Assembly (NCBI GenBank): GCA_032718475.1
Contig: JAUCBJ010005946.1
Coordinates: forward strand, 1-64,000
From: Nemertoderma westbladi
Taxonomy: Eukaryota; Animalia; Xenacoelomorpha
Direction of reading: 5' to 3'
Length of the DNA: 64,000 nucleotides
Below the pieces are notes generated by a model. That model was not told the origin of the DNA, ran no database searches, and saw nothing but the letters and a program-made list of their open reading frames with translations. Position numbers and translations under genes: made by a program. Shown here one piece after another: positions 24,539 through 59,897 of the stretch. The first letter of the stretch is position 1. Every line of letters starts with the position of its first letter.

Positions 24539-24733
24539 GGGCGATGCCTGGAGGAATGTCAACTGTCGTCATGTTTCTCCCCCTCCCAACGCGGTTGTTG
24601 CCGAAATGAATTTGGATCCTTTCTATAAGAAATACCTTCACGCCTATGGAATTCCGATACTCAGTTCGGAGAATGTTCCTGATGAGGCACTTCGGAGAGC
24701 CTGTTACATTACTTGGTTCATGATGTTAGATAG
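24539..24733 (+). CDS. Metallopeptidase gene, exon B
   Basis: ttttag|G GDAWRNVNCRHVSPPP...LDPFYKKYLHAYGIPILSSENVPDEALRRACYITWFMMLD ag|gtaggt. Confidence 0.9.
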
Positions 24734-27700
24734 GTAGGTTATACCTGTTACATTACTTGGTTCATGATGTTAGATAGGTAGGTTGTACTTGTTACATTAC
24801 TTGGTTCATGATGTTAGATAGGTAGGTTATACTTGTTACATTACTTGGTTCATGATGTTAGATACGTAGGTTATACTTGTTACATTACTTGGTTCATGAT
24901 GTTAGATAGGTAGGTTATACTTGTTACATTACTTGGTTCATGGTGTTAGATAGGTAGGTTATACTTGTTACATTACTTGGTTCATGGTGTTAGATAGGTA
25001 GGTTATACTTGTTACATTACTTGGTTCTTTGTGTTAGATAGGTAGGTTATACCTGTTACATAACTTGGTTCATGATGTTAGATTGGTAGGTTATACTTGT
25101 TACATTACTTGGTTCATGATGTTCGATATGTAGGTTATACTTGTTACATTACTTGGTTCATGATGTTAGATAGGTAGGTTATATTTGTTACATTACTTGG
25201 TTCATGATGTTCGATATGTAGGTTATACTTGCTACATTACTTGGTTCATGGTGTTAGATAGGTAGGTTATACTTGTTACATTACTTGGTTCATGATGTTA
25301 GATAGGTAGGTTATACTTGTTACATTACTTGGTTCATGGTGTTAGATAGGTAGGTTATACTTGTTACATTACTTGGTTCATGATGTTCGATATGTAGGTT
25401 ATACTTGTTACATTACTTGGTTCATGATGTTAGATAGGTATGTTATACTTGTTACATTACTTGGTTCATGATGTTAGATAGGTAGGTTATACTTGTTACA
25501 TTACTTGGTTCATGATGTTAGATAGGTATGTTATACTTGTTACATTACTTGGTTCATGATGTTAGATTGGTAGGTTATACCTGTTACATAACTTGGTTCA
25601 TGATGTTAGATTGGTAGGTTATACTTGTTACATTACTTGGTTCATGATGTTAGATAGGTATGTTATACTTGTTACATTACTTGGTTCATGATGTTAGATA
25701 GGTAGGTTATACTTGTTACATTACTTGGTTCATGATGTTCGATATGTAGGTTATACTTGCTACATTACTTGGTTCATGGTGTTAGATAGGTAGGTTATAT
25801 TTGTTACATTACTTGGTTCATGATGTTAGATTGGTAGGTTATACCTGTTACATAACTTGGTTCATGATGTTAGATTGGTAGGTTATACTTGTTACATTAC
25901 TTGGTTCATGATGTTAGATAGGTATGTTATACTTGCTACATTACTTGGTTCATGGTGTTAGATAGGTAGGTTATACCTGTTACATAACTTGGTTCATGAT
26001 GTTAGATTGGTAGGTTATACTTGTTACATTACTTGGTTCATGATGTTAGATAGGTAGGTTATACCTGTTACATTACTTGGTTCATGATGTTAGATAGGTA
26101 GGTTATATTTGTTACATTACTTGGTTCATGATGTTAGATTGGTAGGTTATACTTGTTACATTACTTGGTTCATGATGTTCGATATGTAGGTTATACTTGC
26201 TACATTACTTGGTTCATGATGTTAGATAGGTAGGTTATATTTGTTACATTACTTGGTTCATGATGTTAGATTGGTAGGTTATACTTGTTACATTACTTGG
26301 TTCATGATGTTCGATATGTAGGTTATACTTGCTACATTACTTGGTTCATGATGTTAGATAGGTAGGTTATACTTGTTACATTACTTGGTTCATGATGTTC
26401 GATATGTAGGTTATACTTGCTACATTACTTGGTTCATGGTGTTAGATAGGTAGGTTATATTTGTTACATTACTTGGTTCATGATGTTAGATTGGTAGGTT
26501 ATACTTGTTACATTACTTGGTTCATGATGTTCGATATGTAGGTTATACTTGCTACATTACTTGGTTCATGGTGTTAGATAGGTAGGTTATACCTGTTACA
26601 TTACTTGGTTCATGATGTTAGATAAGTAGGTTATACTTGTTACATTGCTTGGTTCATGATGTTTGACAGATATATTATACTTGTTACATTACTTGGTTCA
26701 TGATGTTAGATAGGTAGGTTATACTTGTTACGTTACTTGGTTCATGATGTTAGATAAGTAGGTTATACTTGTTACATTGCTTGGTTCATGATGTTTGACA
26801 GATATATTATACTTGTTACATTACTTGGTTCATGATGTTAGATAGGTATGCTATACTTGTTACATTACTTGGTTCATGATGTTAGATAGGTAGGTTATAC
26901 TTGTTACATTACTTGGTTCATGATGTTAGATAGGTAGGTTATACTTGTTACGTTACTTGGTTCATGGTGTTAGATAGGTAGGTTATACCTGTTACATTAC
27001 TTGGTTCATGATGTTAGATAAGTAGGTTATACTTGTTACATTGCTTGGTTCATGATGTTTGACAGATATATTATACTTGTTACATTACTTGGTTCATGAT
27101 GTTAGATAGGTAGGTTATACCTGTTACATTACTTGGTTCATGATGTTAGATAAGTAGGTTATACTTGTTACATTGCTTGGTTCATGATGTTTGACAGATA
27201 TATTATACTTGTTACATTACTTGGTTCATGATGTTAGATAGGTAGGTTATACTTGTTACGTTACTTGGTTCATGATGTGAAATAGGTAGGTTATACCTGT
27301 TACATAACTTGGTTCATGATGTTAGATAGGTATGTTATACTTGTTACATTACTTGGTTCATGATGTTAGATAGGTATGCTATACTTGTTACATTACTTGG
27401 TTCATGATGTTAGATAGGTAGGTTATACCTGTTACATTACTTGGTTCATGATGTTAGATAGGTTAAGTTTATACCTGTTACATTACTTGGTTCATGGTGT
27501 TAGATAGGTAGGATATACTTGTTACAATACTTGGTTCATGGTGTTAGATATGTAGGTTATACCTGTTACATTACTTGGTTCATGATGTTAGATAGGTAGG
27601 TTATATTTGTTACATTACTTGGTTCATGATGTTAGATAAGTAGGTTATACTTGTTACATTGCTTGGTTCATGATGTTTGACAGATATATTATACTTGTTA

Positions 27701-30700
27701 CATTACTTGGTTCATGATGTTAGATAGGTAGGTTATACCTGTTACATTACTTGGTTCATGATGTTAGATAAGTAGGTTATACTTGTTACATTGCTTGGTT
27801 CATGATGTTTGACAGATATATTATACTTGTTACATTACTTGGTTCATGGTGTTAGATAGGTAGGTTATACCTGTTACATTACTTGGTTCATGATGTTAGA
27901 TAAGTAGGTTATACATGTTACATTGCTTGGTTCATGATGTTTGACAGATATATTATACTTGTTACATTACTTGGTTCATGATGTTAGATAGGTAGGTTAT
28001 ACTTGTTACGTTACTTGGTTCATGATGTGAAATAGGTAGGTTATACCTGTTACATAACTTGGTTCATGATGTTAGATAGGATAAGTTTATACCTGTTACA
28101 TTACTTGGTTCATGGTGTTAGATAGGTAGGATATACTTGTTACAATACTTGGTTCATGGTGTTAGATATGTAGGTTATACCTGTTACATCACTTGGTTCA
28201 TGATGTTAGATAGGTAGGTTATACTTGTTACATTACTTGGTTCATGATGTTAGATAGGTATGTTATACTTGTTACATTACTTGGTTCATGATGTTAGATA
28301 GGTATGTTATACTTGTTACATTACTTGGTTCATGATGTTAGATAGGTAGGTTATACTTGTTACAATACTTGGTTCATGGTGTTAGATATGTAGGTTATAC
28401 CTGTTACATTACTTGGTTCATGATGTTAGATAGGTAGGTTATACTTGTTACATTACTTGGTTCATGATGTTAGATAGGTAGGTTATACTTGTTACATTAC
28501 TTGGTTCATGATGTTAGATAGGTATGTTATACTTGTTACATTACTTGGTTCATGATGTTAGATAGGTATGTTATACTTGTTACATTACTTGGTTCATGAT
28601 GTTAGATAGGTATGCTATACTTGTTACATTACTTGGTTCATGATGTTAGATAGGTATGCTATACTTGTTACATTACTTGGTTCATGATGTTAGATAGGTA
28701 TGTTATACTTGTTACATTACTTGGTTCATGATGTTAGATAGGTATGTTATACTTGTTACATTACTTGGTTCATGATGTTAGATAGGTAGGTTATACTTGT
28801 TACGTTACTTGGTTCATGATGTGAAATAGGTAGGTTATACCTGTTACATAACTTGGTTCATGATGTTAGATAGGTTAAGTTTATACCTGTTACATTACTT
28901 GGTTCATGGTGTTTGATAGGTAGGTTATACTTGTTACAATACTTGGTTCATGGTGTTAGATATGTAAGTTATACCTGTTACATTACTTGGTTCATGATGT
29001 TAGATAGGTAGGTTATACTTGTTACGTTACTTGGTTCATGATGTTAGATAGGTAGGTTATACCTGTTACATTACTTGGTTCATGATGTTAGATAGGTAGG
29101 TTATACTTGTTACGTTACTTGGTTCATGATGTGAAATAGGTAGGTTATACCTGTTACATAACTTGGTTCATGATGTTAGATAGGTTAAGTTTATACCTGT
29201 TCCATTACTTGGTTCATGGTGTTAGATAGGTAGGTTATACTTGTTACAATACTTGGTTCATGGTGTTAGATATGTAGGTTATACCTGTTACATTACTTGG
29301 TTCATGATGTTAGATAGGTAGGTTATACTTGTTACATTACTTGGTTCATGATGTTAGATAGGTATGTTATACTTGTTACATTACTTGGTTCATGATGTTA
29401 GATAGGTATGTTATACTTGTTACATTACTTGGTTCATGATGTTAGATAGGTATGCTATACTTGTTACATTACTTGGTTCATGATGTTAGATAGGTAGGTT
29501 ATACTTGTTACATTACTTGGTTCATGATGTTAGATAGGTATGTTATACTTGTTACAATACTTGGTTCATGATGTTAGATAGGTATGTTATACTTGTTACA
29601 TTACTTGGTTCATGATGTTAGATAGGTATGTTATACTTGTTACATTACTTGGTTCATGATGTTAGATAGGTATGCTATACTTGTTACATTACTTGGTTCA
29701 TGATGTTAGATATGTAGGTTATACCTGTTACATTACTTGGTTCATGATGTTAGATAGGTAGGTTATACTTGTTACATTACTTGGTTCATGATGTTAGATA
29801 GGTATGTTATACTTGTTACATTACTTGGTTCATGATGTTAGATAGGTATGTTATACTTGTTACATTACTTGGTTCATGATGTTAGATAGGTATGCTATAC
29901 TTGTTACATTACTTGGTTCATGATGTTAGATAGGTAGGTTATACTTGTTACATTACTTGGTTCATGATGTTAGATAGGTTAAGTTTATACCTGTTCCATT
30001 ACTTGGTTCATGGTGTTAGATAGGTAGGTTATACTTGTTACAATACTTGGTTCATGGTGTTAGATATGTAGGTTATACCTGTTACATTACTTGGTTCATG
30101 ATGTTAGATAGGTATGTTATACTTGTTACATTACTTGGTTCATGATGTTAGATAGGTATGCTATACTTGTTACATTACTTGGTTCATGATGTTAGATAGG
30201 TAGGTTATACTTGTTACATTACTTGGTTCATGATGTTAGATAGGTATGTTATACTTGTTACATTACTTGGTTCATGATGTTAGATAGGTATGTTATACTT
30301 GTTACATTACTTGGTTCATGATGTTAGATAGGTATGCTATACTTGTTACATTACTTGGTTCATGATGTTAGATAGGTAGGTTATACTTGTTACATTACTT
30401 GGTTCATGATGTTAGATAGGTATGTTATACTTGTTACATTACTTGGTTCATGATGTTAGATAGGTATGTTATACTTGTTACATTACTTGGTTCATGATGT
30501 TAGATAGGTATGCTATACTTGTTACATTACTTGGTTCATGATGTTAGATAGGTAGGTTTTACTTGTTATATTACTTGGTTCATGATGTTAGATAGGTAGG
30601 TTATACTTGTTACAATACTTGGTTCATGGTGTTAGATATGTAGGTTATACCTGTTACATTACTTGGTTCATGATGTTAGATAGGTAGCTTATACTTGTTA

Positions 30701-33700
30701 CATTACTTGGTTCATGATGTTAGATAGGTATGTTATACTTGTTACATTACTTGGTTCATGATGTTAGATAGGTATGTTATACTTGTTACATTACTTGGTT
30801 CATGATGTTAGATAGGTATGCTATACTTGTTACATTACTTGGTTCATGATGTTAGATAGGTAGGTTATACTTGTTAAATTACTTGGTTCATGATGTTAGA
30901 TAGGTATGTTATACTTGTTACATTACTTGGTTCATGGTGTTAGATAGGTATGTTATACTTGTTACATAACTTGGTTTATGATGTTAGATAGGTATGTTAT
31001 ACTTGTTACATTACTTGGTTCATGATGTTAGATAGGTAGGTTATACTTGTTACATTACTTGGTTCATGATGTTAGATAGGCATGTTATACTTGTTATATA
31101 ACTTGGTTCATGATGTTAGATAGGTATGTTATACTTTTTACATTACTCTGTTCATGATTTTAGATAGGTAGGTTATACTTGTTACATTACTTGGCTTATG
31201 ATGTTCGATTAAGGCAGGTTATACTTGTTATATTACTTGGTTCATGGTGTTAGATAGGTAGGTTATACCTGTTACATTACTCTGTTCATGATTTTAGATA
31301 GGTAGGTTATACTTGTTACATTACTTGGTTTATGATGTTCGATTAAGGCAGGTTATACTTGTTACATTACTTGGTTCATGATGTTAGATAGGTATGTTAT
31401 ACTTGTTACATAACTTGGTTCATGATGTTAGATAGGTATGTTATACTTGTTACATTACTTGGTTCATGATGTTAGATAGGTATGTTATACTTGTTACATT
31501 ACTTGGTTCATGATGTTAGATAGGTATGTTATACTTGTTACATTACTTGGTTCATGATGTTAGATAGGTATGCTATACTTGTTACATTACTTGGTTCATG
31601 ATGTTAGATAGGTATGCTATACTTGTTACATTACTTGGTTCATGATGTTAGATAGGTATGTTATACTTGTTACATTACTTGGTTCATGATGTTAGATAGG
31701 TATGTTATACTTGTTACATTACTTGGTTCATGATGTTAGATAGGTAGGTTATACTTGTTACGTTACTTGGTTCATGATGTGAAATAGGTAGGTTATACCT
31801 GTTACATAACTTGGTTCATGATGTTAGATAAGTAGGTTATACTTGTTACATTGCTTGGTTCATGATGTTAGACAGATATATTATACTTGTTACATTACTT
31901 GGTTCATGATGTTAGATAGGTAGGTTATACTTGTTACGTTACTTGGTTCATGATGTGAAATAGGTAGGTTATACCTGTTACATAACTTGGTTCATGATGT
32001 TAGATAGGTTAAGTTTATACCTGTTACATTACTTGGTTCATGGTGTTTGATAGGTAGGTTATACTTGTTACAATACTTGGTTCATGGTGTTAGATATGTA
32101 AGTTATACCTGTTACATTACTTGGTTCATGATGTTAGATAGGTAGGTTATACTTGTTACGTTACTTGGTTCATGATGTTAGATAGGTAGGTTATACCTGT
32201 TACATTACTTGGTTCATGATGTTAGATAGGTAGGTTATACTTGTTACGTTACTTGGTTCATGATGTGAAATAGGTAGGTTATACCTGTTACATAACTTGG
32301 TTCATGATGTTAGATAGGTTAAGTTTATACCTGTTCCATTACTTGGTTCATGGTGTTAGATAGGTAGGTTATACTTGTTACAATACTTGGTTCATGGTGT
32401 TAGATATGTAGGTTATACCTGTTACATTACTTGGTTCATGATGTTAGATAGGTAGGTTATACTTGTTACATTACTTGGTTCATGATGTTAGATAGGTATG
32501 TTATACTTGTTACATTACTTGGTTCATGATGTTAGATAGGTATGTTATACTTGTTACATTACTTGGTTCATGATGTTAGATAGGTATGCTATACTTGTTA
32601 CATTACTTGGTTCATGATGTTAGATAGGTAGGTTATACTTGTTACATTACTTGGTTCATGATGTTAGATAGGTATGTTATACTTGTTACAATACTTGGTT
32701 CATGATGTTAGATAGGTATGTTATACTTGTTACATTACTTGGTTCATGATGTTAGATAGGTATGTTATACTTGTTACATTACTTGGTTCATGATGTTAGA
32801 TAGGTATGCTATACTTGTTACATTACTTGGTTCATGATGTTAGATATGTAGGTTATACCTGTTACATTACTTGGTTCATGATGTTAGATAGGTAGGTTAT
32901 ACTTGTTACATTACTTGGTTCATGATGTTAGATAGGTATGTTATACTTGTTACATTACTTGGTTCATGATGTTAGATAGGTATGTTATACTTGTTACATT
33001 ACTTGGTTCATGATGTTAGATAGGTATGCTATACTTGTTACATTACTTGGTTCATGATGTTAGATAGGTAGGTTATACTTGTTACATTACTTGGTTCATG
33101 ATGTTAGATAGGTATGTTATACTTGTTACATTACTTGGTTCATGATGTTAGATAGGTATGTTATACTTGTTACATTACTTGGTTCATGATGTTAGATAGG
33201 TATGCTATACTTGTTACATTACTTGGTTCATGATGTTAGATAGGTAGGTTATACTTGTTACAATACTTGGTTCATGGTGTTAGATATGTAGGTTATACCT
33301 GTTACATTACTTGGTTCATGATGTTAGATAGGTAGGTTATACTTGTTACATTACTTGGTTCATGATGTTAGATAGGTATGTTATACTTGTTACATTACTT
33401 GGTTCATGATGTTAGATAGGTATGTTATACTTGTTACATTACTTGGTTCATGATGTTAGATAGGTATGCTATACTTGTTACATTACTTGGTTCATGATGT
33501 TAGATAGGTAGGTTTTACTTGTTATATTACTTGGTTCATGATGTTAGATAGGTAGGTTATACTTGTTACAATACTTGGTTCATGGTGTTAGATATGTAGG
33601 TTATACCTGTTACATTACTTGGTTCATGATGTTAGATAGGTAGCTTATACTTGTTACATTACTTGGTTCATGATGTTAGATAGGTATGTTATACTTGTTA

Positions 33701-36700
33701 CATTACTTGGTTCATGATGTTAGATAGGTATGTTATACTTGTTACATTACTTGGTTCATGATGTTAGATAGGTATGCTATACTTGTTACATTACTTGGTT
33801 CATGATGTTAGATAGGTAGGTTATACTTGTTACATTACTTGGTTCATGATGTTAGATAGGTATGTTATACTTGTTACAATACTTGGTTCATGATGTTAGA
33901 TAGGTATGTTATACTTGTTACATTACTTGGTTCATGATGTTAGATAGGTATGTTATACTTGTTACATTACTTGGTTCATGATGTTAGATAGGTATGCTAT
34001 ACTTGTTACATTACTTGGTTCATGATGTTAGATATGTAGGTTATACCTGTTACATTACTTGGTTCATGATGTTAGATAGGTAGGTTATACTTGTTACATT
34101 ACTTGGTTCATGATGTTAGATAGGTATGTTATACTTGTTACATTACTTGGTTCATGATGTTAGATAGGTATGTTATACTTGTTACATTACTTGGTTCATG
34201 ATGTTAGATAGGTATGCTATACTTGTTACATTACTTGGTTCATGATGTTAGATAGGTAGGTTATACTTGTTACATTACTTGGTTCATGATGTTAGATAGG
34301 TATGTTATACTTGTTACATTACTTGGTTCATGATGTTAGATAGGTATGTTATACTTGTTACATTACTTGGTTCATGATGTTAGATAGGTATGCTATACTT
34401 GTTACATTACTTGGTTCATGATGTTAGATAGGTAGGTTATACTTGTTACATTACTTGGTTCATGATGTTAGATAGGTATGTTATACTTGTTACATTACTT
34501 GGTTCATGATGTTAGATAGGTATGTTATACTTGTTACATTACTTGGTTCATGATGTTAGATAGGTATGCTATACTTGTTACATTACTTGGTTCATGATGT
34601 TAGATAGGTAGGTTTTACTTGTTATATTACTTGGTTCATGATGTTAGATAGGTAGGTTATACTTGTTACAATACTTGGTTCATGGTGTTAGATATGTAGG
34701 TTATACCTGTTACATTACTTGGTTCATGATGTTAGATAGGTAGCTTATACTTGTTACATTACTTGGTTCATGATGTTAGATAGGTATGTTATACTTGTTA
34801 CATTACTTGGTTCATGATGTTAGATAGGTATGTTATACTTGTTACATTACTTGGTTCATGATGTTAGATAGGTATGCTATACTTGTTACATTACTTGGTT
34901 CATGATGTTAGATAGGTAGGTTATACTTGTTAAATTACTTGGTTCATGATGTTAGATAGGTATGTTATACTTGTTACATTACTTGGTTCATGGTGTTAGA
35001 TAGGTATGTTATACTTGTTACATAACTTGGTTTATGATGTTAGATAGGTATGTTATACTTGTTACATTACTTGGTTCATGATGTTAGATAGGTAGGTTAT
35101 ACTTGTTACATTACTTGGTTCATGATGTTAGATAGGCATGTTATACTTGTTATATAACTTGGTTCATGATGTTAGATAGGTATGTTATACTTTTTACATT
35201 ACTCTGTTCATGATTTTAGATAGGTAGGTTATACTTGTTACATTACTTGGCTTATGATGTTCGATTAAGGCAGGTTATACTTGTTATATTACTTGGTTCA
35301 TGGTGTTAGATAGGTAGGTTATACCTGTTACATTACTCTGTTCATGATTTTAGATAGGTAGGTTATACTTGTTACATTACTTGGTTTATGATGTTCGATT
35401 AAGGCAGGTTATACTTGTTACATTACTTGGTTCATGATGTTAGATAGGTATGTTATACTTGTTACATAACTTGGTTCATGATGTTAGATAGGTATGTTAT
35501 ACTTGTTACATTACTTGGTTCATGATGTTAGATAGGTATGTTATACTTGTTACATTACTTGGTTCATGATGTTAGATAGGTATGTTATACTTGTTACATT
35601 ACTTGGTTCATGATGTTAGATAGGTATGCTATACTTGTTACATTACTTGGTTCATGATGTTAGATAGGTATGCTATACTTGTTACATTACTTGGTTCATG
35701 ATGTTAGATAGGTATGTTATACTTGTTACATTACTTGGTTCATGATGTTAGATAGGTATGTTATACTTGTTACATTACTTGGTTCATGATGTTAGATAGG
35801 TAGGTTATACTTGTTACGTTACTTGGTTCATGATGTGAAATAGGTAGGTTATACCTGTTACATAACTTGGTTCATGATGTTAGATAAGTAGGTTATACTT
35901 GTTACATTGCTTGGTTCATGATGTTAGACAGATATATTATACTTGTTACATTACTTGGTTCATGATGTTAGATAGGTAGGTTATACTTGTTACGTTACTT
36001 GGTTCATGATGTGAAATAGGTAGGTTATACCTGTTACATAACTTGGTTCATGATGTTAGATAAGTAGGTTATACTTGTTACATTGCTTGGTTCATGATGT
36101 TAGACAGATATATTATACTTGTTACATTACTTGGTTCATGATGTTAGATAGGTAGGTTATACTTGTTACGTTACTTGGTTCATGATGTTAGATAGGTAGG
36201 TTATACTTGTTACGTTACTTGGTTCATGATGTTAGATAGGTAGGTTATACCTGTTACATTACTTGGTTCATGATGTTAGATAGGTAGGTTATACTTGTTA
36301 CGTTACTTGGTTCATGATGTGAAATAGGTAGGTTATACCTGTTACATAACTTGGTTCATGATGTTAGATAGGTTAAGTTTATACCTGTTCCATTACTTGG
36401 TTCATGGTGTTAGATAGGTAGGTTATACTTGTTACAATACTTGGTTCATGGTGTTAGATATGTAGGTTATACCTGTTACATTACTTGGTTCATGATGTTA
36501 GATAGGTAGGTTATACTTGTTACATTACTTGGTTCATGATGTTAGATAGGTATGTTATACTTGTTACATTACTTGGTTCATGATGTTAGATAGGTATGTT
36601 ATACTTGTTACATTACTTGGTTCATGATGTTAGATAGGTATGCTATACTTGTTACATTACTTGGTTCATGATGTTAGATAGGTAGGTTATACTTGTTACA

Positions 36701-39297: not shown

Positions 39298-39342
39298 TGG
39301 TAGGTGGTAGATCTGTTCAATTTTTTTGTGGATTGTTTTCAG

Positions 39343-39458
39343 ACAAGATATCAGAAATGCAATGTATAACTCACATGCGAGACTGGCTATTATGTCGAAA
39401 GATGAAGCATCTAATGATATGCCTGAACATATTAACAGAGCTGATAGTGGTGTTAGAG
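39343..39458 (+). CDS. Metallopeptidase gene, exon C
   Basis: ttttcag|A QDIRNAMYNSHARLAIMSKDEASNDMPEHINRADSGVR g|gtgaag; phases 2/1 fit both neighbours. Confidence 0.88.
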
Positions 39459-45003: not shown

Positions 45004-46686
45004 CCAGCTAACACCACCTAGCCCCACCTGGGTTAAAAAGCAATCAGCTAACACCACCAGCCCCACCTGGGTTAACAACCAATCAGCTAACACCACCTAG
45101 CCCCATCTGGGAAAACAACCAATCAGCTAACACCACCGAGCCCCATCTGGGTTAACAACCAATCAGCTAACACCACCAAGCCCCACCTGTGTTAACAACC
45201 AATCAGCTAACACCACCAGCCCCACCTGGGTTAACAACCAATCAGCTAACACCACCTAGCCCCATCTGGGAAAACAACCAATCAGCTAACACCACCGAGC
45301 CCCACCTGGGTTAACAACCAATCAGCTAACACCACCAAGCCCCACCTGGGTTAACAACCAATCAGCTAACACCAACTAGCCCCACCTCGTTTAACAACCA
45401 ATCAGCTAACACCAACACCACCTAGCCCCACCTCTGTTAACAACCAATCAGCTAACACCACCTATCCCCACCTGGGTTAACAAGCAATCGGCTAACACCA
45501 CCAGCCCCACCTGGGTTAACAAGAAATCAGCAAATACCACCTAGCCCCACCTGGGTTAACAAGCAATCAGCTAACACCACCAGCCCCACCTGGGTTAACA
45601 AGCAATCAGCTAACACCACCTAGCCCCACCTGGGTTAACAAGCAATCAGCTAACACCACCTAGGCCCACCTGGGTTAACAACCAATCAGCTAACACCACC
45701 TAGCCCCACCTGGGTTAACAAGCAATTAGCTAACACCACCTAGCCCACCTTGGTTAACAAGCAATCAGCTAACACCACCTAGCCCCACCTGGGTTAACAA
45801 CCAATCAGCTAACACCACCTAGCCCCACCTGGGATAACAAGCAATCAGATAACACCACCAGCCCCACCTCGTTTAACAATCAAACAACTAACACCAACAC
45901 CACCTAGCCCCAACTGAGTTAACAACCAATCAGCTAACACCACCAGCTCCACCTGGGTTAACAAGCAATCAGCTAACACCACCTAGCCCCACCTGGGTTA
46001 ACAATCAATCAGCTAACACCACCTAGCCCCACCTGGGATAACAAGCAATCAGCTAACACCACCAGCCACACCTGGGTGAACAAGCAATCAGCTAACACCA
46101 CCTAGCCCCACCTTGGTTAACAAGCAATCAGCTAACATCACCAGCCCCACCTGGGTTAACAAGCAATCAGCTAACACCACCTAGCCCCACCTGGGTTAAC
46201 AAGCAATCAGCTAACACCACCTAGGCCCACCTGGGTTAACAACCAATCAGCTAACACCACCTAGCCCCACCTGGATTAACAACCAATCAGCTAACACCAC
46301 CAGCCCCACCTGGGTTAACAACCAATCAGCTAACACCACCTAGCCCCATCTGGGAAAACAACCAATCAGCTAACACCACCGAGCCCCACCTGGGTTAATA
46401 ACCAATCAGCTAACACCACCAAGCCCCACCTGGGTTAACAACCAATCAGCTAACACCACCAAGCCCCACCTGGGTTAACAACCAATCAGCTAACACCACC
46501 TAGCCCCACCTGGGTTAACAATCAATCAGCTAACACCACCAAGCCCCACCTGGGTTAACAACCAATCAGCTAACACCACCAAGCCCCACCTGGGTTAACA
46601 ACCAATCAGCTAACACCACCTAGCCCCACCTGGGATAACAACCAATCAGTTAACACCACCTAGCCCCACCTGTAATAACAACCAAT
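45004..46686 (-). repeat. ~40-bp satellite containing CAG|GTGGGG on the minus strand
   Basis: Plus-strand unit aacaaccaatcagctaacaccacctagccccacctgggtt. Confidence 0.95.
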
Positions 46687-47506: not shown

Positions 47507-47674
47507 TCAAGCATCAACTTCTATTGCGTTAGGTTGAGTAGCTGGTAGATCAGTAGGTGATTGGATGTTTCCTTCCTCTACCATGCCCTCGCCCTGTGAT
47601 TGGCCACTCTCTTCAGCATGACGTCTGGCTGCCAGAATTGCCTCGTTGGTTACTTTAACTTCGTAGTCCACAGG
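47507..47674 (-). CDS. LRRC34: LRRC34 putative terminal exon
   Basis: ttttctag|PVDYEVKVTNEAILAARRHAEESG...NAIEVDA*; phase 0 matches the preceding exon ending YYTQ. Confidence 0.65.
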   Translation of the reverse strand, partial: PVDYEVKVTNEAILAARRHAEESGQSQGEGMVEEGNIQSPTDLPATQPNAIEVDA

Positions 47675-50600
47675 CTAGAAAAACAATTTCAATAGAATAG
47701 ACTATTTATTTCCGCGATTTACATTCCACGACGTCCTAGCATAGTACGCAGTGAACTTGTTTATCCGTTTTCACCCAAACAACACCGGACTGGAGAAAAT
47801 CAGCTACGTTATAAACGTATTGTAGAGGATCTCTGACTTCTGATTGGTGGAAATTTGCCGGGAGGAAATTATATAGGCCTAAATGATATTCGTTTACTTT
47901 TATTATTGAATGGTGACGTTATACAAAGGTATTTATCAAAATTAGACCCATTTTGTTTTTTATTATTAAATTTGCTGATTTTGGAACAAATTTCATGGTA
48001 TTAATTTCAATGCATACTATTACTATTATAGATTTATTATAGAATTATATATTATTATATACTGCCTACTATTATAGATATCGCTTCTACAGTATTCAGG
48101 TAATGGAAATCGGAGCCAATAAATAAACGTTGATTAGTGGAAAGTATTGCAAGTTCCACCTTGATTTAGTGGATATTGAATTTACATCTCTCGGAGGTCG
48201 TGGGTTCAATCCTCGCTGTAATAAAGCGACCAATAGGAGGCGTGCTACCTGTTTGTAATAAAGCAACCAATATATATGAGGCGTGCTACCTGTGTGTAAT
48301 AAAGAAACCAATATCTATGACGTGTGCTACTTGTGTGTAATAATATAAAGCAACCAATAGGAGGCGTGCTACATGTGTGTAATAAAGCAACCAATAGGAG
48401 GCGTGCTACCTGTGTGTGATAAAGCAACCAATACCTATGAGGCGTGCTACCTGTGTGTAATAAAGCAACCAATATCTATGAGGCGTGTTGTTACCTGTGT
48501 GTATTATAGCAACCAATATCTATGAGGCGTGCTACCTGTGTGTAATAAAGCAACCAATATCAATGAGGCGTGTTACCTGTTTGTAATAAAGCAACCAATG
48601 TCTATGAGGCGTGTTGTTACCTGTGTGTAATATAGCAACCAATATCTATGAGGCGTGCTACCTGTGTGTAATAAAGCAACCAATATCTATGAGGCGTTCT
48701 ACCTGTGTGTAATAAAGCAACCAATATCAATGAGGCGTGTTGTTACCTGTGTGTATTATAGCAACCAATATCTATGAGGCGTGCTACCTGTGTGTAATAA
48801 AGCAACCAATATCTATGAGGCATGTTACCTGTGTGTAATAAAGAAACCAATATCAATGACGTGTGCTACTTGTGTGTAATAATATAAAGCAGCCAATAGG
48901 AGGCGTGCTACATGTGTGTAATAAAGCAACCAATATCAATGAGGCGTGCTACATGTGTGTAATGAAGCAACCAATAGGAGGCGTGCTACCTGTGTGTAAT
49001 AAAGCAACCAATATCTATGAGGCGTGTTGTTACCTGTGTGTAATAAAGAAACCAATATCTATGACGTGTGCTACTTGTGTGTAATAATATAAAGCAACCA
49101 ATAGGAGGCGTGCTACATGTGTGTAATAAAGCAACCAATATCAATGAGGCGTGCTACATGTGTGTAATGAAGCAACCAATAGGAGGCGTGCTACCTGTGT
49201 GTAATAAAGCAACCAATATATATGAGGCGTGCTACCTGTGCGTAATAAAGCAACCAATATATATGAGTCGTGCTACTTGTGTGAAATATAAAGCGACCAA
49301 TAGGAGGCGTGCTACCTGTGTGTAATAAAGCAACCAATAGGAGGCGTGCTACCTGTGTGTAATAAAGCAACCAATAGGAGGCGTGCTACCTGTGTGTAAT
49401 AAAGCAACCAATATCAATGAGGCGTGTTACCTGTTTGTAATAAAGCAACCAATGTCTATGAGGCGTGTTGTTACCTGTGTGTAATATAGCAACCAATATC
49501 TATGAGGCGTGCTACCTGTGTGTAATAAAGCAACCAATATCTATGAGGCGTGCTACCTGTGTGTAATAAAGCAACCAATAGGAGGCGTGCTACCTGTGTG
49601 TAATAAAGCAACCAATATCAATGAGGCGTGTTACCTGTTTGTAATAAAGCAACCAATGTCTATGAGGCGTGTTGTTACCTGTGTGTAATATAGCAACCAA
49701 TACCTATGAGGCGTGCTACCTGTGTGTAATAAAGCAACCAATATTTATGAGGCATGCTACCTGTATGTAATGAAGCAACCAATAGGAGGCGTGCTACCTG
49801 TGTGTAATATGCTACCAATAACTATGAGGCGTGCTACCTGTGTGTAATAAAGCAACCAATAGGAGGCGGGATACCTGTGTGTAATATGCTACCAATATCT
49901 ATAAGGCGTGCCACCTGTGTGTAATATGCTACCAATATCTATAAGGCGTGCTACATGTGTGTAATAAAGCAACCAATAGGAGGCGTGCTACCTGTGTGTA
50001 ATATGCTACCAATAACTATGAGGCGTGCTACCTGTGTGTAATAAAGCAACCAATAGGAGGCGGGCTACCTGTGTGTAATATGCTACCAATATCTATAAGG
50101 CGTGCTACCTGTGTGTAATATGCTACCAATATCTATAAGGCGTGCTACATGTGTGTAATAAAGCAACCAATATATATGAGGCGTGCTACCTGTGCGAAAT
50201 GAAGCAACCAATAGGAGGCGTGCTACCTGTGTGTAATAAAGCAACCAATATCAATGAGGCGTGCTACCTGTGTGTAATAAAGCAACCAATATCAATGAGG
50301 CGTGCTACCTGTGTGTAATAAAGCAACCAATATCTATGAGGCGTGCTACCTGTGTGTAATAAAGCAACCAATAGGAGGCGTGCTACCTGTGTGTAATAAA
50401 GCAACCAATAGGAAGCGTGCTACCTGTGTGTAATAAAGCAACCAATATCAATGAGGCGTGCTACCTGTGTGTAATAAAGCAACCAATAGGAGGCGTGCTA
50501 CCTGTGTGTAATAAAGCAACCAATTGGAGGCATGCTACCTGTGTGTAATGAAGCAACCAATAGGAGGCGTGATAACTGTGTGTATAATAAAGCAACCAAT

Positions 50601-53600
50601 ATATATGAGGCGTGCTACCTGTGTGTAATAAAGCAACCAATTGGAGGCGTGCTATCTGTGTGTAATGAAGCAACCAATAGGAGGCGTGCTACCTGTGTTA
50701 ATAAAACAACCAATAGGAGGCGTGCTACCTCGTATGTAATGAAGCAACCAATAGGAGGCGTGCTACCTGTGTGTAATAAAGCAACCAATATATATGAGGC
50801 GTGCTACCTGTATGTATGTAATGAAGCAACCAATAGGAGGCGTGCTACCTGTGTGTAATAAAGCAACCAATATATATGAGGCGTGCTACCTGTTTGTAAT
50901 GAAGCAACCAATAGGAGGCGTGCTACCTGTGTGTAATAAAGCAACCAATATCTATGAGGCGTGCTACTTGTGTGTAATATAAAGCAACCAATAGGAGGCG
51001 TGCTACCTGTGTGTAATAAAGCAACCAATATATATGAGGCGTGCTACCTGTATGTATGTAATGAAGCAACCAATAGGAGGCGTGCTACCTGTATGTAATA
51101 AAGCAACCAATATCAATGAGGCGTGCTACCTGTGTATAATAAAGCAACCAATATATCTGAGGCGTGCTACATGTGCGAAATGAAGCAACCAATAGGAGGC
51201 GTGCTCCCTGTGTGTAATAAAGCAACCAATATCTATGAGGCGTGCTACCTGTATGTAATGAAGCAACCAATAGGAGGCGTGCTACCTGTGTGTAATAAAG
51301 CAACCAATATCTATGAGGCGTGCTACTTGTGTGTAATATAAAGCAACCAATAGGAGGCGTGATACCTGTGTGTAATAAAGCAACCAATATATATGAGGCG
51401 TGCTACCTGTGTGAAATGAAGCGACCAATATCTATGAGGCGTGCTACCTGTGTGTAATAAAGCAACTAATATCTATAAGGTGTGCTACCTGTGTGTAATG
51501 AAGCAACCAATATGAGGCGTGCTACCTGTGTGTAATGAAGCAACCAATAGGAGTCGTGCTACCTGTGTGTAATGAAGCAACCAATAGGAGGCGTTCTACC
51601 TGTGTGTAATAAAGCAACCAATAGGAGGCGTGCTACCTGTGTGTAATAAAGCAACCAATATCTACGAGGCGTGCTACCTGTGTGTAATAAAGCAACCAAT
51701 AGGAGGCGTTCTACCTGTGTGTAATAAAGAAACCAATAGGAGGCGTTCTACCTGTGTGTAATAAAGCAACCAATAGGAGGCGTGCTACCTGTGTGTAATA
51801 AAGCAACCAATATTTATGAGGCATGCTATCTGTATGTAATGAAGCAACCAATAGGAGGCGTGCTACCTGTGTGTAATAAAGCAACTAATATCTATAAGGT
51901 GTGCTACCTGTGTGTAATGAAGCAACCAATAGGAGGCGTGCTACCTGTGTGTAATGAAGCAACCAATAGGAGTCGTGCTACCTGTGTGTAATAAAGCAAC
52001 CCATAGGAGGCGTGCTACCTGTGTGTAATAAAGCAACCAATATCTATGAGGCGTGCTACCTGTATGTATGTAATGAAGCAACCAATAGGAGGCGTGTTAC
52101 CTGTGTGTAATAAAGCAACCAATATTTATGAGGCATGCTACCTGTATGTAATGAAGCAACCAATAGGAGGCGTGCTACCTGTGTGTAATATGCTACCAAT
52201 AACTATGAGGCGTGCTACCTGTGTGTAATAAAGCAACCAATAGGAGGCGGGCTACCTGTGTGTAATATGCTACCAATATCTATAAGGCGTGCCACCTGTG
52301 TGTAATATGCTACCAATATCTATAAGGCGTGCTACATGTGTGTAATAAAGCAACCAATAGGAGGCGTGCTACCTGTGTGTAATATGCTACCAATAACTAT
52401 GAGGCGTGCTACCTGTGTGTAATAAAGCAACCAATAGGAGGCGGGCTACCTGTGTGTAATATGCTACCAATATCTATAAGGCGTGCTACCTGTGTGTAAT
52501 ATGCTACCAATATCTATAAGGCGTGCTACATGTGTGTAATAAAGCAACCAATATCTATAAGGTGTGCTACCTGTGTGTAATGAAGCAACCAATATGAGGC
52601 GTGCTACCTGTGTGTAATGAAGCAACCAATAGGAGTCGTGCTACCTGTGTGTAATGAAGCAACCAATAGGAGGCGTTCTACCTGTGTGTAATAAAGCAAC
52701 CAATAGGAGGCGTGCTACCTGTGTGTAATAAAGCAACCAATATCTACGAGGCGTGCTACCTGTGTGTAATAAAGCAACCAATAGGAGGCGTTCTACCTGT
52801 GTGTAATAAAGAAACCAATAGGAGGCGTTCTACCTGTGTGTAATAAAGCAACCAATAGGAGGCGTGCTACCTGTGTGTAATAAAGCAACCAATATTTATG
52901 AGGCATGCTACCTGTATGTAATGAAGCAACCAATAGGAGGCGTGCTACCTGTGTGTAATAAAGCAACTAATATCTATAAGGTGTGCTACCTGTGTGTAAT
53001 GAAGCAACCAATAGGAGGCGTGCTACCTGTGTGTAATGAAGCAACCAATAGGAGTCGTGCTACCTGTGTGTAATAAAGCAACCCATAGGAGGCGTGCTAC
53101 CTGTGTGTAATAAAGCAACCAATATCTATGAGGCGTGCTACCTGTATGTATGTAATGAAGCAACCAATAGGAGGCGTGTTACCTGTGTGAAATAAAGCAA
53201 CCAATATTTATGAGGCATGCTACCTGTATGTAATGAAGCAACCAATAGGAGGCGTGCTACCTGTGTGTAATATGCTACCAATAACTATGAGGCGTGCTAC
53301 CTGTGTGTAATAAAGCAACCAATAGGAGGCGGGCTACCTGTGTGTAATATGCTACCAATATCTATAAGGCGTGCCACCTGTGTGTAATATGCTACCAATA
53401 TCTATAAGGCGTGCTACATGTGTGTAATAAAGCAACCAATAGGAGGCGTGCTACCTGTGTGTAATATGCTACCAATAACTATGAGGCGTGCTACCTGTGT
53501 GTAATAAAGCAACCAATAGGAGGCGGGCTACCTGTGTGTAATATGCTACCAATATCTATAAGGCGTGCTACCTGTGTGTAATATGCTACCAATATCTATA

Positions 53601-56600
53601 AGGCGTGCTACATGTGTGTAATAAAGCAACCAATATATATGAGGCGTGCTACCTGTGCGAAATGAAGCAACCAATAGGAGGCGTGCTACCTGTGTGTAAT
53701 AAAGCAACCAATATCAATGAGGCGTGCTACCTGTGAGTAATAAAGCAACCAATATCAATGAGGCGTGCTACCTGTGTGTAATAAAGCAACCAATATCTAT
53801 GAGGCGTGCTACCTGTGTGTAATAAAGCAACCAATAGGAGGCGTGCTACCTGTGTGTAATAAAGCAACCAATAGGAGGCGTGCTACCTGTGTGTAATAAA
53901 GCAACCAATATCAATGAGGCGTACCTGTGTGTAATAAAGCAACCAATAGGAGGCGTGCTACCTGTGTGTAATAAAGCAACCAATTGGAGGCATGCTACCT
54001 GTGTGTAATTAAGCAACCAATAGGAGGCGTGCTACCTGTGTGTATAATAAAGCAACCAATATATATGAGGCGTGCTACCTGTGTGTAATAAAGCAACCAA
54101 TTGGAGGCGTGCTATCTGTGTGTAATGAAGCAACCAATAGGAGGCGTGCTACCTGTGTTAATAAAACAACCAATAGGAGGCGTGCTACCTCGTATGTAAT
54201 GAAGCAACCAATAGGAGGCGTGCTACCTGTGTGTAATAAAGCAACCAATATATATGAGGCGTGCTACCTGTATGTATGTAATGAAGCAACCAATAGGAGG
54301 CGTGCTACCTGTGTGTAATAAAGCAACCAATATATATGAGGCGTGCTACCTGTTTGTAATGAAGCAACCAATAGGAGGCGTGCTACCTGTGTGTAATAAA
54401 GCAACCAATATCTATGAGGCGTGCTACTTGTGTGTAATATAAAGCAACCAATAGGAGGCGTGCTACCTGTGTGTAATAAAGCAACTAATATCTATAAGGT
54501 GTGCTACCTGTGTGTAATGAAGCAACCAATAGGAGGCGTGCTACCTGTGTGTAATGAAGCAACCAACAGGAGTCGTGCTACCTGTGTGTAATAAAGCAAC
54601 CCATAGGAGGCGTGCTACCTGTGTGTAATAAAGCAACCAATATCTATGAGGCGTGCTACCTGTATGTATGTAATGAAGCAACCAATAGGAGGCGTGTTAC
54701 CTGTGTGTAATAAAGCAACCAATATTTATGAGGCATGCTACCTGTATGTAATGAAGCAACCAATAGGAGGCGTGCTACCTGTGTGTAATATGCTACCAAT
54801 AACTATGAGGCGTGCTACCTGTGTGTAATAAAGCAACCAATAGGAGGCGGGCTACCTGTGTGTAATATGCTACCAATATCTATAAGGCGTGCCACCTGTG
54901 TGTAATATGCTACCAATATCTATAAGGCGTGCTACATGTGTGTAATAAAGCAACCAATAGGAGGCGTGCTACCTGTGTGTAATATGCTACCAATAACTAT
55001 GAGGCGTGCTACCTGTGTGTAATAAAGCAACCAATAGGAGGCGGGCTACCTGTGTGTAATATGCTACCAATATCTATAAGGCGTGCTACCTGTGTGTAAT
55101 ATGCTACCAATATCTATAAGGCGTGCTACATGTGTGTAATAAAGCAACCAATATCTATAAGGTGTGCTACCTGTGTGTAATGAAGCAACCAATATGAGGC
55201 GTGCTACCTGTGTGTAATGAAGCAACCAATAGGAGTCGTGCTACCTGTGTGTAATGAAGCAACCAATAGGAGGCGTTCTACCTGTGTGTAATAAAGCAAC
55301 CAATAGGAGGCGTGCTACCTGTGTGTAATAAAGCAACCAATATCTACGAGGCGTGCTACCTGTGTGTAATAAAGCAACCAATAGGAGGCGTTCTACCTGT
55401 GTGTAATAAAGAAACCAATAGGAGGCGTTCTACCTGTGTGTAATAAAGCAACCAATATTTATGAGGCATGCTACCTGTATGTAATGAAGCAACCAATAGG
55501 AGGCGTGCTACCTGTGTGTAATAAAGCAACTAATATCTATAAGGTGTGCTACCTGTGTGTAATGAAGCAACCAATAGGAGGCGTGCTACCTGTGTGTAAT
55601 GAAGCAACCAATAGGAGTCGTGCTACCTGTGTGTAATAAAGCAACCCATAGGAGGCGTGCTACCTGTGTGTAATAAAGCAACCAATATCTATGAGGCGTG
55701 CTACCTGTATGTATGTAATGAAGCAACCAATAGGAGGCGTGTTACCTGTGTGTAATAAAGCAACCAATATTTATGAGGCATGCTACCTGTATGTAATGAA
55801 GCAACCAATAGGAGGCGTGCTACCTGTGTGTAATATGCTACCAATAACTATGAGGCGTGCTACCTGTGTGTAATAAAGCAACCAATAGGAGGCGGGCTAC
55901 CTGTGTGTAATATGCTACCAATATCTATAAGGCGTGCCACCTGTGTGTAATATGCTACCAATATCTATAAGGCGTGCTACATGTGTGTAATAAAGCAACC
56001 AATAGGAGGCGTGCTACCTGTGTGTAATATGCTACCAATAACTATGAGGCGTGCTACCTGTGTGTAATAAAGCAACCAATAGGAGGCGGGCTACCTGTGT
56101 GTAATATGCTACCAATATCTATAAGGCGTGCTACCTGTGTGTAATATGCTACCAATATCTATAAGGCGTGCTACATGTGTGTAATAAAGCAACCAATATA
56201 TATGAGGCGTGCTACCTGTGCGAAATGAAGCAACCAATAGGAGGCGTGCTACCTGTGTGTAATAAAGCAACCAATATCAATGAGGCGTGCTACCTGTGAG
56301 TAATAAAGCAACCAATATCAATGAGGCGTGCTACCTGTGTGTAATAAAGCAACCAATATCTATGAGGCGTGCTACCTGTGTGTAATAAAGCAACCAATAG
56401 GAGGCGTGCTACCTGTGTGTAATAAAGCAACCAATAGGAGGCGTGCTACCTGTGTGTAATAAAGCAACCAATATCAATGAGGCGTACCTGTGTGTAATAA
56501 AGCAACCAATAGGAGGCGTGCTACCTGTGTGTAATAAAGCAACCAATTGGAGGCATGCTACCTGTGTGTAATTAAGCAACCAATAGGAGGCGTGCTACCT

Positions 56601-57650
56601 GTGTGTATAATAAAGCAACCAATATATATGAGGCGTGCTACCTGTGTGTAATAAAGCAACCAATTGGAGGCGTGCTATCTGTGTGTAATGAAGCAACCAA
56701 TAGGAGGCGTGCTACCTGTGTTAATAAAACAACCAATAGGAGGCGTGCTACCTCGTATGTAATGAAGCAACCAATAGGAGGCGTGCTACCTGTGTGTAAT
56801 AAAGCAACCAATATATATGAGGCGTGCTACCTGTATGTATGTAATGAAGCAACCAATAGGAGGCGTGCTACCTGTGTGTAATAAAGCAACCAATATATAT
56901 GAGGCGTGCTACCTGTTTGTAATGAAGCAACCAATAGGAGGCGTGCTACCTGTGTGTAATAAAGCAACCAATATCTATGAGGCGTGCTACTTGTGTGTAA
57001 TATAAAGCAACCAATAGGAGGCGTGCTACCTGTGTGTAATAAAGCAACCAATATATATGAGGCGTGCTACCTGTATGTATGTAATGAAGCAACCAATAGG
57101 AGGCGTGCTACCTGTATGTAATAAAGCAACCAATATCAATGAGGCGTGCTACCTGTGTATAATAAAGCAACCAATATATCTGAGGCGTGCTACATGTGCG
57201 AAATGAAGCAACCAATAGGAGGCGTGCTCCCTGTGTGTAATAAAGCAACCAATATCTATGAGGCGTGCTACCTGTATGTAATGAAGCAACCAATAGGAGG
57301 CGTGCTACCTGTGTGTAATAAAGCAACCAATAGGAGGCGTGCTACCTGTGTGAAATGAAGCAACCAATAGGAGGCGTGCTACCTGTGTGTAATAAAGCAA
57401 CCAATAGGAGGAGTGCTACCTGTGTGTAATATGCTACCAATATCTATAAGGCGTGCTACCTGTGTGTAATAAAGCAACCAATATATATGAGGCGTGCTAC
57501 ATGTGTGTAATAAAGCAACCAATATATATGAGGCGTGCTACCTGTGTGAAATGAAGCAACCAATAGGAGGCGTGCTACCTGTGTGAAATGAAGCAACCAA
57601 TAGGAGGCGTGCTACCTGTGTGTAATGAAGCAACCAATAGGAGGCGTGCA

Positions 57651-57739
57651 ATAGGAGGAGTTGTGGCGGTGCAATTTTGTTGACAAGCCGGCACAGCATT
57701 CTTAAAAATGCAGCTGCAATGCAGCATGCCGATCCTAGT
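57651..57739 (+). mobile_element. RTE 3'-end fragment inside the satellite (copy 1)
   Basis: gagttgtggcggtgcaattttgt...gcagcatgccgatcctagt matches the reverse complement of ~13610-13693. Confidence 0.9.
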
Positions 57740-58159
57740 GCTACCTGTGTGTAATAAAGCACCAATAGGAGGCGTGCTACCTGTGTGTAATGAAGCAACC
57801 AATAGGAGGCGTGCTACCTGTGTGAAATGAAGCAACCAATAGGAGGCGTGCTACCTGTGTGAAATGAAGCAACCAATAGGAGGCGTGCTACCTGTGTGAA
57901 ATGAAGCAACCAATAGGAGGAGTGCTACCTGTGTGTAATGTGCTACCAATATCTATAAGGCGTGCTACCTGTGTGTAATAAAGCAACCAATATATATGAG
58001 GCGTGCTACATGTGTGTAATAAAGCAACCAATATATATGAGGCGTGCTACCTGTGTGAAATGAAGCAACCAATAGGAGGCGTGCTACCTGTGTGAAATGA
58101 AGCAACCAATAGGAGGCGTGCTACCTGTGTGTAATGAAGCAACCAATAGGAGGCGTGCA

Positions 58160-58248
58160 ATAGGAGGAGTTGTGGCGGTGCAATTTTGTTGACAAGCCGG
58201 CACAGCATTCTTAAAAATGCAGCTGCAATGCAGCATGCCGATCCTAGT
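58160..58248 (+). mobile_element. RTE 3'-end fragment inside the satellite (copy 2, 509 bp downstream)
   Basis: Identical insert and flanks to copy 1. Confidence 0.9.
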
Positions 58249-59066
58249 GCTACCTGTGTGTAATAAAGCACCAATAGGAGGCGTGCTACCTGTGTGTAAT
58301 GAAGCAACCAATAGGAGGCGTGCTACCTGTGTGAAATGAAGCAACCAATAGGAGGCGTGCTACCTGTGTGAAATGAAGCAACCAATAGGAGGCGTGCTAC
58401 CTGTGTGTAATGAAGCAACCAATAGGAGGCGTGCTAGCTGTTTGTAATAAAGCAACCAATAGGAGGCGTGCTACCTGTGTTTAATGAAGCAACCAATAGG
58501 AGGCGTGCAACCTGTGTGTAATAATGCAACCAATAGGAGGCGTGCTACCTGTGTGTAATAATGCAACCAATAGGAGGCGTGGTACCTGTGTGTAATAATG
58601 CAACCAATGGGAGGCGTGCAACCTGCGTGTAATAATGCAACCAATAGGAGGCGTGCTACCTGTGTGTAATAATGCAACCAATAGGAGGCGTGCTACCTGT
58701 GTGTAATAATGCAACCAATAGGAGGCGTGGTACCTGTGTGTAATAATGCAACCAATGGGAGGCGTGCAACCTGTGTGTAATAATGCAACCAATAGAAGGC
58801 GTGCTACCTGTGTGTAATAATGCAACCAATAGGAGGCATGCTACCTGTGTGTAATAATGCAACCAATGGGAGGCGTGCTACCTGTGTGTAATAATGCAAC
58901 CAATAGGAGGCGTGGTACCTGTGTGTAATAATGCAACCAATGGGAGGCGTGCAACCTGTGTGTAATAATGCAACCAATAGGAGGCGTGCTACCTGTGTGT
59001 AATAATGCAACCAATAGGAGGCGTGCTACCTGTGTGTAATAAAGCAACCAATAGGAGGCATGCTAC

Positions 59067-59328
59067 CTGTGTGTAATAATTCTTCCGTGGTCCGTTTGGC
59101 AGCTCCGCCATATAAATCCTCTCGTCTACAACGTACGTCATCACATCGGTGTTGCGTGCCAACAATCTCCCGTTGCTTATTAACTCGTGAACGGGAATAG
59201 CGACCTCTTCTTCGTCAGTGTGGTTTCCCCACAGGTATAGGATATCCAAGGATGAGTTGATTGACATCGCGTCCGCAATTAATCTCAGGCCTTTGCCGTG
59301 CAGATGGTTATATTTTAGATTCAATGAG
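59067..59328 (-). CDS. LRRC34: LRRC34 exon
   Basis: cacag|C SLNLKYNHLHGKGL...LYLWGN...NTDVMTYVVDERIYMAELPNGPRKNYYTQ|gtagca; resembles the recalled LRRC34 C-terminus (IYIWGN..NTDVEPFVVDGRVYLAEVSNGLKKHYY). Confidence 0.9.
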
Positions 59329-59596
59329 CTGTGAGTAAAATAAAAATATAATGTTACAGTACGAGGCGCATCACTTCCGAAAAATAAACGCACACAAAAG
59401 TAAAGTTAGAGAGCAACACAATATAGTGATGAAAATCACCTTACAGGTTTAAGGAGGTCTAACATCCCTGAGTAGTAAATAAACCGAACATCTCACTAGT
59501 TATGGAAAATAAATTTGAATATTTATATAATTTTATGTTAAAATCTCATGCTATGTAGTTAAGTTCTCTATTTTATGGTAGAGTGAAAATGGTGAT

Positions 59597-59897
59597 TATA
59601 CTTTAGATTAAAGTTACATTGTAAGGTTCGAGCCGATCTGGAAAAGAAACTCACTTTAAAGTAAAGTTATATTGTAATGCTCGCTCCTATGTGGCAAAGA
59701 GACTCACTTTTAGACTAAAGTTACATTGTAAGGCTCGCTACTATATGGAAACTAAACTCACTTTAGAGTGAAGTTACATTGTAAGGCTCGCTTCTATATG
59801 GAAACTAAACTCACTTTAGAGTGAAGTTACATTGTAAGCCTCGCTTCTATATGGAAACTAAACTCACTTTAGAGTGAAGTTACATTGTAAGGCTCGC
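59597..59897 (-). repeat. ~53-bp repeat, ~6 copies = LRRC34 exon end + GTGAGT donor
   Basis: Minus-strand unit cgagccttacaatgtaacttcactctaaa|gtgagtttagtttccatatagaag, decaying away from the exon. Confidence 0.92.

Follow-up and report, generated by a model that had tools for sequence, protein, structure and literature searches.

Minisatellites spanning predicted 5′ splice sites in two adjacent genes of Nemertoderma westbladi: an extreme set within a known repeat class

How does an intron come to consist almost wholly of copies of its own 5′ splice site? The question is raised by a 64,000-nt stretch of the Nemertoderma westbladi genome (GenBank assembly GCA_032718475.1, contig JAUCBJ010005946.1, positions 1 to 64,000 of the forward strand; hereafter the window), in which two adjacent genes could be reconstructed by homology: gene 1, on the plus strand, encoding an uncharacterised protein with an HExxH motif and a ShK domain, and LRRC34, on the minus strand. 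An earlier note, made from the sequence alone, had claimed that repeat units of 44, 53 and 37 bp, and probably also of 32 and 40 bp, begin inside the 3′ end of an exon, span the GT donor and are amplified into the intron, on both strands and in at least two genes. Tandem Repeats Finder (TRF) recovered all five arrays at the same places, and the claim of a donor-spanning start stood for the first three, least certainly for the 37-bp array. We put at roughly 60% the probability that these three are donor-spanning minisatellites of the kind described as 'mirage' repeats in lancelets and known from human F7 and ABCA7, tolerated because splicing takes the first donor. They are a dense and extreme set of members of an already known repeat class; neither their kind nor their size is new. 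Donor and acceptor scores come from an approximate weight matrix.

The 44-bp array begins 32 nt before the GT donor at 24734, within a gene 1 exon defined by homology that is 48–68% identical to its homologues, including those of Branchiostoma. Homologue matches end at 24734 and resume at 39341 with one residue common to both (all three printed alignments of the eight run), placing the first-unit donor in register with the next exon; only phase 2 is open across this junction. The intron so defined is 14,609 nt long and 99.8% array. TRF reported 328 copies (24702–39153), and 331 units could be followed to about 39313 when the decayed tail was included. Units in the interior differ from the first by about 2 edits, the last four by 8–14; here, as in the 37-bp array, the first unit is within 1–2 edits of the commonest unit. 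The pattern of the array junction had no match (0) in metagenome contigs.

The 53-bp array starts 30 nt upstream of the LRRC34 donor at 59867 and has LRRC34 exons on both sides, the downstream exon starting at 59328 with only phase 2 open. In all three intron-bearing loci (L006–L008) among eight related ones, a phase-2 intron sits one codon downstream, so the array occupies an intron near an old intron position. At most one base separates the exon unit and the two copies that follow it, and the three distal copies, where whole, differ by 9–10 edits; the exon and its two proximal copies carry TTC, and the three distal copies carry the synonymous TTT. For this one array, with its one informative site, the most economical view is that the exon-bearing unit served as template for the newest copies.

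The 37-bp array opens 13 nt upstream of the donor at 59066, which is weak (score 1.8). In the LRRC34 homologues a YY motif is followed, three residues later, by a proline in 66 of the 70 tails that have this anchor motif (70 of 96 proteins). Unspliced continuation past 59066 lacks this proline and scores −6.7 against the homologue tails, whereas a phase-0 exon starting at 47674 has it and ranks first among 97 candidates (2.6, next 0.26), many of the 97 being repeat units. This exon is also the longest open reading frame among 147 phase-0 YAG starts, and its GC content of 49% resembles that of other LRRC34 exons (47–50%) more than that of its flanks (33–35%); no Pfam family was found in it (47510–47674). 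Judged from these sequence features, the 59066/47674 junction is very probably real, defining a lineage-specific intron of 11,392 nt that is 95% array, although it is the least certain of the three. The other possibility is that the array is not intronic but invaded the last coding exon of LRRC34, replacing a dispensable C-terminal tail and lying in the 3′ untranslated region, which would leave two donor-seeded arrays. The weakness of the donor points that way, as do the absence of an intron at this site in all three intron-bearing relatives and the dispensable tail implied by the five of eight loci (L001–L005) that end before the YY motif. The poor score of the unspliced continuation and the proline, open frame and coding-like composition of the 47674 exon make a non-intronic array unlikely. 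The exon preceding the array (59067–59328) itself lacks a mid-exon intron present in the three intron-bearing relatives. Adjoining the distal end of the array, 48165–48216 resembles by eye a tRNA-like remnant with A and B boxes, possibly the head of a short interspersed nuclear element; ARAGORN found no tRNA gene.

For the 32- and 40-bp arrays, the suggestion that they are probably donor-seeded gained minus-strand donor-like sites (scores 3.5 and 6.2; a score of 3.5, on one strand or the other, is reached by 4.5–5.3% of random units of the same length), but the flanking frames matched no homologue, Pfam family or Atlas entry. The 47-residue open frame between the two arrays (44877–45017) had no Atlas match, and the flanking frames, read through stops in six frames, gave no Pfam family and only chance-level structure matches (best E 0.07). 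Acceptors and donors on the minus strand can be linked into a chain (46669, 45027, 45004, 44938, 44874 and 43479), most joins of which meet stop codons. Exons of a transcript that is non-coding or has gone unrecognised may adjoin the two arrays. Nearby, 46700–47400 on the minus strand holds broken frames with short motifs whose spacing is reminiscent of a decayed hAT transposase, with no Pfam or structure match.

Table 1. Positions of the arrays, the exons of the two genes and an inserted repeat in the window.
Feature	Position	Strand	Basis and remarks
44-bp donor-spanning array	24702..39313	+	~331 units, 70 distinct types; donor GT 24734; last 4 units decayed; block duplications of 1–4 kb
37/41-bp array	48217..59079	−	278 units of 88 types; 13 exonic nt, then a weak donor GT at 59066; duplicated blocks at lags of up to 2.6 kb
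53-bp donor-spanning array	59600..59897	−	5.6 units; donor GT 59867
32-bp array	43552..44889	−	~42 units (TRF 43568–44889, 41 copies); donor-like GTGAGT, first at 44874
40-bp array	45005..46686	−	42 units; donor-like CAG/GTGGGG, first at 46669; also scores as acceptor in last unit
Gene 1 coding exon	24539..24733	+	tblastn 24537–24734; acceptor placed from the sequence; final 32 nt open the first 44-bp unit
Gene 1 next exon	39343..39458	+	Homology; in register with first donor, phase 2
Gene 1 exon with HExxH motif	40717–40935	+	tblastn
Gene 1 exon	41144–41370	+	tblastn
Gene 1 exon with ShK domain	41993–42262	+	Pfam E 3.4e-8, tblastn
Gene 1 last exon	42925–43230	+	Open frame and splice signals; no homologue match
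LRRC34 most upstream exon in window	60359..60560	−	Homology; donor without array
LRRC34 coding exon	59868..60150	−	Homology, best E 2.8e-37; last 30 nt begin the 53-bp array
LRRC34 coding exon	59067..59328	−	tblastn of homologues to 59073; ends inside first 37-bp unit
LRRC34 likely last coding exon, 55 codons and stop	47507..47674	−	Inferred: rank 1 of 97 against homologue tails, longest open reading frame of 147, GC 49%
Two identical 90-nt copies of the end of an interspersed repeat	57651–57740, 58160–58249	+	Inside the 37-bp array, duplicated along with neighbouring units

Both large arrays contain long exact internal repeats (1,927 nt at a lag of 4,056 and 1,295 nt at a lag of 2,563), which, together with the duplication of the 90-nt insertion along with its neighbours, indicates that they grew by blocks. 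The 90-nt copies match 13609–13690 and 22987–23069 at 94–99%, and the flanking sequence suggests by eye a long interspersed nuclear element (LINE). The array repeats are otherwise unrelated to repeats elsewhere in the window, with which they share only chance matches of 11–16 nt. The decay that the earlier note saw at the far end is visible in the 44- and 53-bp arrays but is confined to the last three or four units, and the gradient of divergence with position is weak in the two large arrays (Spearman 0.13 and 0.12, over units that are not independent); the distal edge of the 37-bp array shows no decay (3 edits), and the polarity of the 40-bp array is reversed, its first unit lying 5 edits and its last 3 edits from the commonest unit. 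That the exon forms the first unit was likewise seen, but it follows geometrically from duplicating any donor-spanning segment and adds no separate evidence; and although copy numbers do run from about 6 to about 330, a size series within one assembly does not reveal stages of one process. A separate candidate, creation of the introns by duplication of an AG/GT proto-splice site (the Rogers model), was rejected: all three introns end in a stretch free of the repeat (about 30, 270 and 540 nt) that supplies the acceptor, and the part of the unit after the donor differs from the start of the next exon.

Downstream of the real donors lie 121, 186 and 4 9-mers identical to them in the three donor arrays, the first two counts belonging to the two large arrays, and with so many decoys correct splicing would need the first-donor selection that the earlier note had invoked. 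In the two large arrays the donor GT is changed in 1–4% of units, the same as other unit positions, suggesting that decoys are neither purged nor specially kept. If the donor is read through, the very next codon is a stop in the 44- and 53-bp arrays; in the 37-bp array the frame stays open for 25 codons before a stop.

The literature statements here and below draw on excerpts of the papers cited. Lancelet mirages, found in Adh3, the globins BflGb6 and BflGb9, troponin C and PGBD5, have units of 10–160 bp in 2–7 copies at both intron boundaries (PMC3087553, PMC3902484). The defining feature, a unit holding exon and intron bases of a real boundary, is present in the 44- and 53-bp arrays by homology on both sides and less securely in the 37-bp array; a concerted interior with a diverged edge is seen in the 44-bp array, and the 53-bp array shows two unit groups. 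The N. westbladi arrays thus bear out the mirage precedent that had been proposed for them. As in lancelets, tandem copies of an exon–intron boundary occur in unrelated genes of one invertebrate genome, with edge units outside homogenisation (splicing is reported as undisturbed in the lancelet cases); unlike those mirages, the large arrays here reach 278 and 331 copies rather than 2–7 and lie on the donor side only. The origin of the lancelet repeats is described as unclear (PMC3087553).

The earlier note took arrays of 10–15 kb and this density to be without known precedent, but their size does have one: the variable number tandem repeat (VNTR) of human ABCA7 intron 18, with a 25-bp unit starting from the donor GT, has alleles of up to 10,678 bp (~427 units) that enlarge the intron eightfold, and its splicing is length-dependent with some use of the second donor (PMC5954066). 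Every ABCA7 unit carries the real donor sequence, and the VNTR falls in the same size class as the two large arrays here. Its unit, as described in that source, has no exon bases, compared with 13–32 exonic bases here, and it is a single locus rather than two giant arrays in adjacent genes. In human F7 intron 7, a 37-bp VNTR of 5–25 copies has a first unit that spans the exon–intron boundary and is followed by identical pseudo-donors, as here, and experiment showed that the most upstream donor is chosen (PMC1557585); its copy number is far lower, and donor choice is experimental there and inferred here. Only the first donor is reported to be used in LMNB2 and PDGF (PMC1557585). Giant introns of Drosophila Y genes are also enlarged by tandem repeats, to hundreds of kilobases or megabases of satellite (PMC6508621, PMC11207136), but the excerpts of those papers give no sign of satellites built from a gene's own donor. 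Among open-licence papers, none came to light that tests donor enrichment across a whole genome or describes two giant arrays of this sort in neighbouring genes.

On the reading we favour, each array would have been born from one local duplication, by slippage or repair, of a segment holding the exon end and GT donor, and would have grown as any minisatellite does, by repeated block duplication and unequal exchange. A duplication across the donor would leave the message intact provided that the first donor is chosen; this choice would run 5′ to 3′, as in human F7, with exon definition as part of it, and mis-spliced messages would be removed by nonsense-mediated decay. Minisatellites of this genome would expand readily with or without a donor, and the local over-representation of donors would mainly reflect survival and ascertainment, with duplications in coding exons purged and donor-spanning ones harmless. 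None of the seven other arrays in the window has a donor-like site scoring at least 3.5, and three of these span 0.8 to over 2 kb, indicating that expansion here needs no donor. Decayed unit copies were found at none of the eight acceptors, and at four of the five other donors they were at shuffle level, with donor 42263 marginal (16 of 500 shuffles).

Several observations weigh against this account. Gene 1 and LRRC34 together have eight fully visible introns, and arrays sit at three of the eight donors and at none of the eight acceptors. When every array is reduced to a single unit, at least three of five would fall on one of the eight donors with a probability of 0.0008 over all DNA of the two-gene region and 0.0023 without coding DNA (expected number 0.2–0.3), in a window picked for this very feature, so that the figures are no fair genome-wide test. 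Survival alone predicts no excess over intronic DNA, and the local excess therefore favours some donor-linked bias. A donor-like site is present on one strand of the 32-bp and of the 40-bp array too (a chance of about 5% for each), the TTC/TTT split of the 53-bp array points to new copies born at the exon end, and 'silent' may be too strong a word for the decoys, the nearest of which are used to some degree in ABCA7, IFI6 (6-16) and CBS, according to the excerpts of PMC1557585 and PMC5954066.

Apart from the use of decoys, these points fit a birth aimed at donors, in which transcription- or splicing-coupled lesions at the exon end re-copy the donor segment next to the exon and drive intron gigantism; in the 44- and 37-bp arrays the closeness of the first unit to the commonest one agrees with it, as does the decay at the distal edge of the 44-bp array. 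We nevertheless regard it as doubtful. The window was chosen for the feature from a very large scan and offers five arrays only; dropping the 37-bp case (two of five arrays) raises the probability to 0.018–0.035; the big arrays lack a smooth divergence gradient and owe their bulk to internal block duplication; and mirages on the acceptor side are known in lancelets (excerpts of PMC3087553), while the seven other arrays have no donor. No paper on such a mechanism was found in the open-licence literature. The wider claim, that a polar donor-linked process re-copies exon ends, so that a large share of long introns would be satellites grown from their own donor, with distal units keeping older exon ends and gigantism a by-product of splicing-coupled DNA instability, is similarly improbable; if true, up to five donor-grown arrays would lie within 36 kb. 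The targeted mutational process that the earlier note had put forward is thus suggested only by a post-hoc local excess that, in this window alone, is inseparable from selective survival. A 40-bp array at 61.9 kb was tried as a sixth case and set aside, having a donor score of 0.0 and running off the window.

Binding of U1 guards an intron that grows longer against premature cleavage and polyadenylation (telescripting). Arrays born anywhere might have been permitted to reach 10–15 kb only where sense-strand U1 sites shield the long intron, or where AG/GT serves as a recursive splicing point. The two largest arrays are indeed sense-strand donor arrays, and in the 37- and 40-bp units the GT is immediately preceded by an AG that resembles an acceptor (scores of up to 5.6 and 4.5), but the donor shows no extra conservation over other unit positions, the 44-bp array has 244 AG/GT sites that score poorly as acceptors (median −2.9) and the 37-bp donor is weak, making such permission very unlikely.

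A different concern is that the lengths themselves are partly artefacts of amplification and assembly, the true arrays being shorter. Two copies of an adapter for PacBio ultra-low-input amplification stand head to head at 12596–12647, where they join unrelated satellites of 32 bp (11007–12594) and 42 bp (12648–13419), so the contig derives from DNA amplified by polymerase chain reaction (PCR) and is chimeric at that point. The adapter was identified from excerpts of PMC13694257, in which ultra-low-input reads average 9 kb, below the 14.6-kb length of the larger array, and long exact internal repeats add to the concern. Yet the 70 and 88 unit types stand in ordered higher-order blocks that are hard to obtain from PCR slippage, the exact repeats are under 2 kb and within reach of the reads, and the adapter motif occurs only at 12.6 kb, with none within 24.7–59.9 kb. 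Inflated lengths are accordingly quite unlikely, and the diversity of units argues that the arrays are real, with lengths that stay provisional in a PCR-amplified, locally chimeric assembly. DNA to the left of the join may not be contiguous with the rest of the window.

Taken as donor-spanning minisatellites, the arrays would provide natural substrates for the study of 5′ splice site choice ahead of 120–190 identical decoys, and they call for caution in annotating genes and in using assemblies built from PCR-amplified DNA. Should arrays throughout the genome start on donors far above chance and grow from the exon end, splicing would be linked to local mutation, giving a testable route to giant introns.

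Both genes were identified by homology: 27 of 32 candidates matched gene 1 at E ≤ 0.001 (best E 1.9e-33), the named ones mostly from Branchiostoma, and 104 of 232 matched LRRC34 and are mostly so named (best E 2.8e-37). The last exon of each gene was placed by frame and splice signals rather than by a direct tblastn match, with tail similarity to homologues as an extra basis for LRRC34. Introns between the gene 1 exons from 39343 to 43230 are 208–1,258 nt long and without a junction array. A word-index search with the LRRC34 exon at 59070–59327 gave no match, although the adjoining exon did match. LRRC34 residues 1 to about 147 had no counterpart within the window by tblastn; the gene may be 5′-truncated or have another long intron. 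A CpG-rich, promoter-like region at 60.7–61.0 kb and the 40-bp array that runs from 61892 to the window end both lie where the upstream intron of LRRC34 would be expected.

Other features lie on the gene 1 side of the window. An open, proline-rich, exon-like stretch at 16020–16355 (plus strand) could be an upstream exon of gene 1. The plus-strand unit of the 32-bp satellite at 11007–12594 has an acceptor-like pyrimidine run and TAG (score 2.6); this satellite is possibly an acceptor-side array whose exon would lie beyond the chimeric join. From about 40 to 3090 (plus strand), a long open frame resembles by eye the endonuclease and reverse transcriptase of a LINE and is followed by a 167-bp two-copy repeat. 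At 4417–6727 (plus strand), a long exon with C2H2 zinc-finger-like motifs, again judged by eye, holds an in-frame 39-bp repeat in five copies (6038–6234). Four perfect 52-bp copies at 19457–19663 end, on the minus strand and as seen by eye, just before an acceptor-like pyrimidine tract and AG.

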